The notes below the pieces were generated by a model, which saw only the letters and a list, made by a program, of their open reading frames with translations, did not search any database and was not told where the DNA came from. The position numbers and the translations under genes are program-made. A DNA stretch of 64,000 nucleotides from contig JAQVZU010000001.1 in assembly GCA_028708035.1 (NCBI GenBank), positions 3,275-67,274 of the forward strand. The letters run 5' to 3'. Source of the DNA: Alphaproteobacteria bacterium. Lineage in GTDB: Bacteria; Pseudomonadota; Alphaproteobacteria; UBA9219. Shown one piece after another: positions 52,051 to 53,869 of this stretch (its first letter is position 1; each line of letters opens with the position of its first letter).

Positions 52051-52719
52051 CTACATCAGAATCCAGTCCTTTATGGCGACGCCATAGGGGTTTTCATCGG
52101 TCGGGATGCGCACGATTGTCAGGTGGACAATGGCGCGCGCTCTGCTCATTACGTTATTGTTTGTCGCATATGTCATGACAATAGGCATCTGGATAACCCA
52201 AATGTAGCGCTCTTTTTCCATTCCTTGCGCCACGATTACGGGCGTGTTCGATGGAACCGTTGTAAGGACAAGTTGGCGCTGCTTGAAGTTTTCGCGAATC
52301 TGTAGTTTTTCAAACGTCTTCATGTACGATACCCAACCGCCTTCAGTGAAGCGGTTTTTCTGCTTTGGAAGGCGCATATCCATGTCACCGAAACCCATCG
52401 TCATAACTTCGGTAATCGCCGTCGTTGCCCACGACAAAATTGCCTGATTTGTCATGTTTGGCATTTGCAGAGGGATAAGCAGTTTTACTCGGCTGTCCGG
52501 CGTCATTGCGTAGAAAACCGGCAACGAGCCTGCAAATGGCAGAACAATCGTAAACAAAATTGCCAAGCCGAGGACCGTCCATGTTTGGGTGGCTATACGC
52601 CTTCTGAGGGCGCCGAAGGCGAAAATAGAGTTTTTTGCGCTTATGGAAAGATTTTTTTTTGTCGCGGAGGAAGGCGAGGCGGCAGGAACTGCTGCTGCGG
52701 GTGCGGCGTCGTCCGTCAT
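52051..52719 (-). CDS. IcmL/DotI-family type IVB secretion inner-membrane protein (paralog 2)
   Basis: Single N-terminal TM then a periplasmic domain colinear with the upstream paralog (shared blocks Y..T.D.R, WA.T.I..VM..G, W..YV..MP, IVR.PT.NP.G). 222 aa. 4-nt overlap with paralog 1. Confidence 0.55.
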   Translation of the reverse strand: MTDDAAPAAAVPAASPSSATKKNLSISAKNSIFAFGALRRRIATQTWTVLGLAILFTIVLPFAGSLPVFYAMTPDSRVKLLIPLQMPNMTNQAILSWATTAITEVMTMGFGDMDMRLPKQKNRFTEGGWVSYMKTFEKLQIRENFKQRQLVLTTVPSNTPVIVAQGMEKERYIWVIQMPIVMTYATNNNVMSRARAIVHLTIVRIPTDENPYGVAIKDWILM

Positions 52720-53357
52720 TTATTGTCTCCGACATTCATGGGCACCCATTGCTCAATGCTGACACCGTCGGGATTTTGCAGCGTAGAAACGCGCACAATT
52801 TGCAGGCGGAGCATGGTGTCGATTGATTGCGGCGGTTGCTCGCCGTCAAATTTAATCGTGACCGGCATCCGGACGTACCATGTATAAACGCCATTGCGTT
52901 CGAACGCGCTTTGAATTTCGGGCGCTGCATTGATTTCCATCGTCACAACAAGCTTGCGCACATGAATCGCATCAAGGAAACTGGCTTCCTTGAGCGCTTT
53001 ATTGAAGCTATCCCAACCTGTCGCCGTGAAATTGCTGGAAGCTGTTTGCAGGCGGTCGCGGTAGTCATAGTAGCCGAAGCGCATCACGTTTTGCGCCGTC
53101 GAGGCTGTCCACGCAATAACTTGCGCAGGAGTCAGATACGGCTCGTTAAGGGGCACAATGTTGATGATGCGGCCATCGGAGGTTGTTGCAAAGTAGATCG
53201 AGCGCGGTTTCATCGTCATGAAGAAGCCAATGATCGCACAAATCAGCAATGCGATGACTACGATCTGGACCAGGCTTATGCGCAAAAGAAAGCGGTAGCC
53301 GTCACGATAAAAGGCATTACGAATCAGAATAGTGTTGACGGCGTCTTTTGTTGGCAT
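52716..53357 (-). CDS. icmL: IcmL/DotI-family type IVB secretion inner-membrane protein (paralog 1)
   Basis: 213 aa (Legionella DotI is 212 aa), one TM helix, periplasmic domain. N-terminal RNAFYRDGYR motif typical of the IcmL/TraM(IncI) family. Confidence 0.6.
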   Translation of the reverse strand: MPTKDAVNTILIRNAFYRDGYRFLLRISLVQIVVIALLICAIIGFFMTMKPRSIYFATTSDGRIINIVPLNEPYLTPAQVIAWTASTAQNVMRFGYYDYRDRLQTASSNFTATGWDSFNKALKEASFLDAIHVRKLVVTMEINAAPEIQSAFERNGVYTWYVRMPVTIKFDGEQPPQSIDTMLRLQIVRVSTLQNPDGVSIEQWVPMNVGDNK

Positions 53358-53374
53358 AGAAGACCTCTAGCTAG

Positions 53375-53869
53375 CTAGATGGGGAGGTTGATGTCGGACA
53401 GGCAGATTGCTGACTCATATTCAGCCGAGTTTTTGCAGGACGCGCAAATCCTGTTGTGGCGGCCTTGAGAGGGAAAGATTCGAAGGCACATAAGGCAAAC
53501 GCGAGACGTGGTTTTCGTTTCCTTGCTGGGCTCGCTCGTCCGTTGCGCAGGGCGCGGCGTGGACGCATGGATTTCGCCGTTCTGCAAAGCAATACGACTG
53601 CCGGGTTTGCGTCCCGGCGCAGCACGCCGAGGCAATCCAAGGCGCGCAGCGCGGGTCATAATGGCGGCGATTGACCGGCCAAGCACGTCAGAAATTTCTT
53701 GGGGCGACTTGTTTTGCATCCATAGTCCCCGCAGAATCTCGTCCTGTTGCTGCCAGCTTGGTGTTGCCACATGGACAATGGCGGATGTTTCGCTTCCTGT
53801 TTCAGAAGCCGGACTTGGAGGCGATATGACGTTATTATCACTCACACCAATACTCCCAATATTAGACAC
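53375..53869 (-). CDS. gcrA: GcrA-like cell-cycle regulator family protein
   Basis: N-terminal W..DEILRGLW...SPQEISDVLGRSIAAIMTRAARLGL matches the GcrA DNA-binding domain pattern; Pro/Ser-rich linker; C-terminal Cys cluster. Directly upstream of the icmL-like pair on the same strand. Confidence 0.5.
   Translation of the reverse strand: MSNIGSIGVSDNNVISPPSPASETGSETSAIVHVATPSWQQQDEILRGLWMQNKSPQEISDVLGRSIAAIMTRAARLGLPRRAAPGRKPGSRIALQNGEIHASTPRPAQRTSEPSKETKTTSRVCLMCLRIFPSQGRHNRICASCKNSAEYESAICLSDINLPI

Follow-up and report, generated by a model that had tools for sequence, protein, structure and literature searches.

Which role does a gene for a small protein with a GcrA-like DNA-binding domain play when it stands directly in front of two icmL/dotI genes that form part of a secretion system of type IVB (T4BSS) on an alphaproteobacterial chromosome? 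The question is raised by positions 52,051 to 53,869 of a 64,000-nucleotide (64-kb) stretch of the Alphaproteobacteria bacterium assembly GCA_028708035.1 (contig JAQVZU010000001.1), referred to here, at its full length, as the window. A first-pass annotation had proposed that the small gene encodes a GcrA paralog tying T4BSS expression to the cell-cycle circuitry and that the two IcmL/DotI proteins form a variant heteromeric inner-membrane complex. The explanation that we regard as probable, with moderate confidence, is that the cassette specifies an operon-encoded helix-turn-helix (HTH)/zinc-finger regulator together with a heteromeric DotI/DotJ-like module of a vertically inherited, chromosomal Dot/Icm-type system of Alphaproteobacteria. 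The three genes would then be transcribed as one operon, in a host lineage of uncultured Alphaproteobacteria that includes metagenome-assembled genomes labelled Micavibrio or Bdellovibrionales; the two IcmLs would assemble into a hetero-oligomeric inner-membrane complex anchoring and positioning the DotO ATPase; and the small cytoplasmic protein would most likely bind DNA at a conserved element that precedes the gene encoding it, and would control transcription of the operon, possibly along with other T4BSS genes.

Gene structure and synteny of the cassette

The cassette is made up of three consecutive open reading frames (ORFs) on the minus strand. The GcrA-HTH/zinc-finger small gene (53869-53375, 164 aa, GTG start) is followed by an upstream IcmL/DotI paralog, here termed up (53357-52716, 213 aa), and by a downstream paralog, termed down (52719-52051, 222 aa). 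The gap between the small gene and the first icmL measures 17 nt, one less than the 18 nt annotated before, and contains a GAGG Shine-Dalgarno sequence, while the two icmL ORFs overlap by 4 nt in an ATGA, as had been described. Given the common strand, the 17-nt gap and the 4-nt overlap, the small gene and both icmL genes probably form one operon, and the earlier suggestion that the small gene is co-transcribed with T4BSS genes is retained as probable from the gene arrangement. The 164-aa ORF reported previously is indeed present, with an ambiguous start: the GTG at 53869 is preceded by an AAGGAG Shine-Dalgarno sequence, and an alternative GTG at 53845, giving 156 aa, is equivalent to the 'M/V-SD...' start used by homologues.

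Related loci were collected with patterns peculiar to the family of the small protein, run against a single genome of each species, and their flanks were compared by tblastn. The family was found at 62 loci, all in metagenome-assembled genomes (MAGs), labelled as Alphaproteobacteria, Rhodospirillaceae/Rhodospirillales, Rickettsiales, Micavibrio or 'Bdellovibrionales'; the last label is probably used for some MAGs because NCBI taxonomy puts Micavibrio under Bdellovibrionales. One clade member has a 1.64-Mb chromosome. An ortholog of the up copy follows the small gene in 58 of the 59 informative loci and both paralogs do so in 56, icmL being set off from the small gene by about 29 nt (median). 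Further downstream, icmK follows in 32 of the 51 loci having at least 3.5 kb of sequence on that side, and in the loci examined for downstream order icmE, icmG and a 328-aa ORF that is likewise conserved come after it. Similarly, the DotI-DotJ (IcmL-IcmM) pair of Legionella pneumophila lies upstream of icmK/dotH, icmE/dotG and icmG/dotF, as in most relatives here. The gene that precedes the pair is different, being the HTH/zinc-finger gene here and presumably icmN/dotK in Legionella, and we know of no counterpart of the small gene in the Legionella Dot/Icm gene order.

Exceptions to this order comprise one locus with a single IcmL (L054) and one with fragmented IcmL copies (L064), and at a further locus (L060) the small gene lies beside a convergent gene for a DotL-like coupling protein. 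In L051 and L057 an insertion of roughly 2.3 kb lies between the small gene and the two icmL genes; that of L057 (10409-12535) consists of a 708-aa ORF which, by sequence alone, resembles M3-type peptidases (HEFGH motif). The gene order of the window's own subclade indicates that the ancestral operon has been split there, with the three-gene cassette moving together to the nusB region.

The constant company of the small gene bears directly on the simplest alternative, according to which it is merely the housekeeping gcrA of the organism, located next to icmL by chance. This case, which the first-pass annotation had itself raised, draws on a weak match to the GcrA hidden Markov model (HMM) and nothing more. 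It is excluded by the synteny with IcmL in 58 of 59 informative loci and by a C-terminal domain different from that of GcrA; in addition, the family patterns matched only the 62 loci, all of them MAGs, in the scan of species-representative genomes. We consider chance adjacency vanishingly improbable.

The IcmL/DotI pair

Both icmL ORFs are full length, as first described, and score well above the gathering cutoff of Pfam PF11393 (27.7 bits), with 153.2 bits for the upstream and 127.9 bits for the downstream protein. Against NCBIfam NF038072 (IcmL_DotI_only) the scores are 162.6 and 112.5 bits, respectively, below the equivalog cutoff of 175, and the two proteins are thus classed, by profile score, as members of the family and not as equivalogs of the Legionellales protein. 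Each protein has a single hydrophobic segment near its N-terminus (about residues 20-52 and 42-73), and the N-terminal tail of the downstream protein is rich in Ala and Pro. Aligned to the Legionella DotI crystal structure (3wz4), the periplasmic domains give E-values of 1.8e-22 for the upstream and 1.1e-15 for the downstream protein, which identifies the DotI domain as homologous to both. The structure of R64 TraM (3wz3) is matched more weakly (E 1.7e-8 and 1.6e-5 for the two IcmLs), DotI scoring above TraM by 83 to 38 bits. Each IcmL is accordingly predicted from its sequence to comprise one transmembrane segment and a VirB8-like periplasmic domain. TraM of R64 (IncI1) belongs to the same VirB8-like fold family; in contrast to the two chromosomal paralogs described here, it is present in a single copy and forms a homo-hexamer (PMC4454188).

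The two proteins are 27% identical over 177 aa (E 1e-23), so that the strong mutual block conservation claimed for them in the first-pass annotation was overstated. Across the clade, identity ranges from 43 to 87% among the up copies and from 29 to 68% among the down copies, the downstream copy being the faster-evolving of the two. The up copies and, separately, the down copies are monophyletic, which places the icmL duplication before the origin of the clade; the paralogs are, as far as the trees and alignments tell, ancient duplicates. Orthology of one particular copy to DotI was considered and dropped, since HMMs of the up and down families score DotI equally (117.6 and 116.4 bits) and a neighbour-joining tree built with no Coxiella sequences is split over 200 bootstraps, of which 105 put DotI outside up and down together, 70 group it with down and 25 with up. 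The upstream protein sits where Legionella has DotJ/IcmM. Its score against the NCBIfam model IcmM_DotJ is 18.5 bits relative to a cutoff of 100 (E 0.002, residues 8-83), and identity with DotJ/IcmM, which is short and devoid of a periplasmic domain, is excluded because both copies here are full length. Thus, whereas Legionella DotJ lacks the periplasmic domain, the upstream partner in the cassette retains one.

In Legionella, DotI and DotJ form a stable heterocomplex, and in Coxiella a duplicated DotI (IcmL.1/IcmL.2) is found in place of DotJ (PMC4454188). A 2024 study showed that the Legionella DotJ-DotI complex serves as a membrane receptor for the DotO ATPase, which it positions (PMC11474061). 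By analogy, the two proteins described here most likely join in a VirB8-like inner-membrane complex of hetero-oligomeric type that corresponds to Legionella DotI-DotJ. The heteromer proposed in the first-pass annotation is therefore a reasonable suggestion, while the variant as such is already known: Coxiella burnetii likewise carries tandem full-length icmL/dotI genes at the dotJ-dotI position of a chromosomal Dot/Icm-type system. The cassette differs from that of Coxiella in its host, which is alphaproteobacterial and not a member of the Legionellales, and in that the icmL pair of the window's subclade is detached from icmK-icmE-icmG.

The small protein, its upstream element and the cell cycle

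The small protein displays a disordered N-terminus, a GcrA-type three-helix HTH (residues 39-77), an invariant basic linker (GLPRRxAPGRKPG) and a Cys4 zinc finger (residues 121-160). A search for hydrophobic segments gave none, and the protein is predicted to be soluble and cytoplasmic. Its family comprises 347 homologues, which are about 155 aa long and, with few exceptions, unnamed metagenome proteins, one member being annotated by NCBI as 'GcrA family cell cycle regulator'. An alignment of 35 homologues contains two invariant blocks, SWQEQD..LR.LW.QNK.PQEIS..LGRS.AAIMTRAARLGLPRR.APGRKPG and R.CLMCL..F.S.GRHNRIC..CK.S.EY. The C-terminal Cys cluster noticed in the first reading is thereby borne out, Cys-125, Cys-128, Cys-142 and Cys-145 being invariant in all 35 sequences. 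Overall, 42 columns are invariant, the linker included, in proteins that share about 50% identity. In the AlphaFold2 model, computed with the family alignment, residues 1-37 and the linker are disordered, the HTH at 39-77 has pLDDT values above 90 and the zinc finger is a small β-hairpin plus a helix bearing the four Cys residues (pLDDT about 80-89).

The resemblance to GcrA is confined to residues about 38-82. On the small protein, PF07750 scores 17.0 bits over HMM positions 7-84 of 155, below its cutoff of 26.9, and the NCBIfam GcrA model NF050816 scores 21.8 bits relative to a cutoff of 280. PF07750 is matched by 32 of the 35 family members, with a best E-value of 5.5e-6; the family profile matches Caulobacter GcrA (7ye1_G) over residues 2-55 and nothing beyond (E 0.0018), and in tblastn the same GcrA residues are 34-44% identical to family members. 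No alignment of the small protein to GcrA was obtained past HMM position 84 of 155 or GcrA residue 55, and the 64-kb window, like about 1 Mb of related loci, yielded no further GcrA-type match. The sequence comparison thus supports homology between the HTH of the small protein and the DNA-binding domain of Caulobacter crescentus GcrA (PF07750; PDB 7ye1, 5yiv), with the shared pattern W..(D/E)..L..LW...S..EI...LGRS..A...RA.RLGL..R, and indicates that the sigma-70-interacting C-terminus of GcrA is absent and replaced by a Cys4 zinc finger. The small protein differs from Caulobacter GcrA also in its invariant basic linker, in a variable tail of about 37 residues before the HTH, and in belonging to a family that is restricted to T4BSS loci and has no association with GANTC. 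Since the sigma-70-contacting part is missing and a Cys4 finger stands in its place, the protein should not be classed as GcrA. What remains of the earlier assignment is the homology of the HTH: the match to the GcrA DNA-binding pattern lies below both curated thresholds and not at the extreme N-terminus, and the term GcrA paralog, in its functional sense, does not hold for a similarity limited to the DNA-binding domain.

The combination of HTH and zinc finger reaches well beyond secretion loci. The number of clusters returned by an exhaustive profile search was 22 at E <1e-30 (these represent the T4BSS-linked core), rising to 166 at E <1e-10 and to 2692 at E <1e-3. Among the weaker matches are proteins of 105-190 aa with one or two GcrA-type HTHs and a zinc finger, encoded in contexts unrelated to type IV secretion systems (T4SS); they share their architecture and the zinc-finger signature R.CL.C...F.S.G.HNR.C..CK with the T4BSS-linked protein, while differing from it in HTH number, in length and in the lack of a T4BSS at their loci. 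Long members of 400-800 aa carry up to 9-10 tandem copies of the GcrA-type HTH, and in one locus (L071, 6001-6480) an HTH plus C4 zinc-finger protein adjoins a prophage-type S24 repressor. Judged by these sequences, the architecture defines a broader uncharacterised superfamily, in which the T4BSS-linked proteins are one tight branch.

Upstream of the small gene, a conserved promoter/operator candidate extends over 54004..54041 on the minus strand, with a putative function deduced from a motif and a sigma-70-like site. The 20-bp motif TTAACACATTGTGAGTAATT at 54022-54041 (consensus TTAA.A.ATT.TGAGTAATT) overlaps a sigma-70-like site, TTGTGA-18-TATCAT, that a consensus scan located at 54033-54004. 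It recurs upstream of the homologous small gene in about 20 related loci and occurs once in the 64-kb window, where its 9-mer core with one mismatch allowed is found at chance level; the motif does not recur at dotDCB. The element is a candidate promoter or operator on these grounds. An Rfam search of the 5' region of the cassette and of the 420-nt gap downstream of icmL detected no structured RNA, a tRNA being the only match.

The same region bears on the proposed coupling with the cell cycle. If the small protein were a GcrA paralog acting as a sigma-70 cofactor at CcrM-methylated GANTC sites, such sites would be expected in front of the cassette, and the search for them in T4BSS promoters, suggested along with the first-pass annotation, found zero in the 264 nt upstream of the small gene (53870-54133). 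The density of GANTC over the 62 homologous promoter regions, 0.47 per 200 nt, equals the background and lies below the compositional expectation. In the window as a whole GANTC is mildly rarer than expected (187 observed, 248-285 expected), a scarcity that would agree with the genome encoding a CcrM-type methylase. The HTH homology and the single NCBI annotation as a GcrA family cell cycle regulator also fit such a cofactor; set against them are the end of the GcrA similarity by residue about 55-84, the Cys4 finger in place of the sigma-70-interacting domain, the wide margin by which the curated GcrA thresholds are missed, the occurrence of the HTH plus zinc-finger architecture in unrelated contexts, the site-free promoter and the background frequency among the 62 regions. 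The last two results argue against control through CcrM and GANTC, the cell-cycle link of the cassette is unsupported, and we hold a GcrA-type cofactor to be quite unlikely.

A different role for the small protein is that of a cytoplasmic accessory subunit of the secretion apparatus, serving as a partner of the IcmL tails or DotO or as a nucleic-acid or substrate adaptor, and not as a transcription factor. The very tight linkage to icmL, with a spacing that probably resembles translational coupling, would suit a subunit, as would the unusually high conservation (the 42 invariant columns, linker included), the retention of the small gene with the icmL pair when the operon was split and its position next to the DotL-like coupling protein gene in L060. 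In contrast, the module in which the protein is best conserved is a canonical HTH with homology to a domain proven to bind DNA, relatives of the same architecture occur away from any T4SS, and a conserved non-coding element precedes the gene. An accessory subunit is unlikely on balance, while being the alternative to which we give the most weight.

Several observations weigh against the explanation by a regulator and a heteromeric IcmL module. The 20-bp motif is present in only about 20 of the 62 promoter regions and absent at dotDCB and from the rest of the window. Both IcmL copies miss the NCBIfam equivalog cutoff. A Foldseek search of the small-protein model in the PDB returned generic HTH regulators, with non-significant E-values of at least 0.9. 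DNA binding and regulation by the small protein are predictions drawn from its sequence, and the IcmL heteromer is argued from analogy with Legionella.

Chromosomal setting and biological meaning

The cassette is flanked by argH-ribB-ribH-nusB and a FliL-like gene on one side and by phasin-rplS-trmD-rimM-rpsP-ffh on the other. A second T4BSS locus (17900..20530), about 32 kb from the cassette and preceded by an SLT transglycosylase gene, contains on the plus strand dotD (17900-18424; PF16816 DotD, 92.9 bits), a dotC/TraI-like gene (18285-19334; PF16932 T4SS_TraI, 244.5 bits) and a dotB-like ATPase gene (19313-20530; PF00437 T2SSE, 119.8 bits). icmK, icmE and icmG were not found in the 64-kb window. 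The presence of dotD, dotC and dotB shows that the window holds a genuine T4BSS, and with these genes at a separate locus the system is chromosomal and, like that of Legionella, dispersed over several loci.

This distribution also bears on whether the genes could belong to an integrated conjugative element of IncI type (MPF-I), the small protein being a plasmid-type transfer regulator or a relaxosome accessory factor. IcmL and DotC do match TraM and TraI of R64 as well, a DNA-binding protein is encoded in the operon, and the window includes an integrase and a tRNA-Ser. Nevertheless, the T4BSS genes lie at two loci at least, among argH, ribBH, nusB, rplS, trmD, ffh, htpG and dnaK; the cassette stands in conserved chromosomal synteny across many species; the similarity to DotI exceeds that to TraM; no relaxase was seen; and from the integrase it is about 7 kb to dotD and 43 kb to icmL. 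A conjugative origin is thus very unlikely. The integrase itself is a tyrosine integrase (9389-10872, minus strand; Arm-DNA-bind_3, Phage_int_M and Phage_integrase domains) that adjoins tRNA-Ser(GGA), and the region to its left (6760-9389) contains short ORFs only; together they may represent a small integrated element.

Further genes surround the two T4BSS loci. Upstream of dotD, ORFs of 523 and 273 aa of unknown function and the SLT transglycosylase gene occupy 14487-17557 (plus strand), and dotB is followed by a gene for a 91-aa membrane protein (20549-20824, plus strand) with a 49%-identical homologue in a related locus (L066); the ORFs at both positions may be further T4BSS components that have no Pfam models. 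Each T4BSS locus is also neighboured by one of two paralogous proteins of 558 aa (55654-57330, minus strand) and 604 aa (21025-22839, plus strand), which are 36% identical (E 6e-58) and carry an HE(I/L)GH metalloprotease-like motif. Neither has a significant Pfam match, the marginal one being Hexapep for the 604-aa protein (E 0.098), and among the related loci they occur only in a near-identical contig (L001). They are candidate strain-specific effectors.

The 558-aa protein is encoded in a low-GC block (54134-58000; GC 0.47 relative to 0.52-0.57 elsewhere) together with an Xre-type HTH protein (54134-54814), a 168-aa ORF and a 193-aa ORF. In two relatives (L004 and L006) cobS lies upstream of the cassette, so that the block looks recently inserted. 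The HTH_3 gene at 54134-54814 was rejected as a part of the system because it is adjacent to the cassette only in the two closest relatives. At the other end of the cassette, an ORF-free stretch of 420 nt (51633-52050) separates the end of the downstream icmL from the convergent FliL-like gene, and it showed neither an Rfam match nor a clear minus-strand terminator. A 181-aa protein with two tandem cold-shock domains (PF00313, two stretches) is encoded at 62558-63103 on the plus strand.

Dot/Icm-type systems have been described mainly in Legionellales and in a few other Gammaproteobacteria (PMC11338181, PMC8896642), and our literature search found neither an alphaproteobacterial Dot/Icm system nor a GcrA-like T4SS regulator described. 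Both attractive ideas of the first-pass annotation are weaker than proposed, the heteromer variant being known and the cell-cycle link unsupported. Two things are new here, the conserved first gene and how widely the system occurs in an uncultured alphaproteobacterial lineage: about 60 alphaproteobacterial species share Dot/Icm-type machinery in conserved chromosomal synteny, and the GcrA DNA-binding fold would have been reused outside cell-cycle control.

Micavibrio is the label of an epibiotic bacterial predator. A bolder extension of the preferred explanation, which we offer tentatively and consider unlikely as it stands, somewhat more so than the accessory subunit, would be that a complete, vertically inherited Dot/Icm system is ancestral to a large clade of uncultured Alphaproteobacteria with small genomes and is switched on by its own GcrA-HTH/zinc-finger factor; were these bacteria predators, the type IVB system would be used on bacterial and not on eukaryotic targets. 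If true, the factor would stand for a new class of T4BSS-dedicated regulators that goes back to the DNA-binding domain of a cell-cycle factor. The genome paper of Micavibrio aeruginosavorus ARL-13 reported no type IV secretion (PMC3189940), and the finding of a T4BSS in a lineage that includes Micavibrio-labelled MAGs may therefore shed light on the interactions of these uncultured bacteria with hosts or prey, with the conserved first gene as a testable candidate for a dedicated T4BSS regulator.

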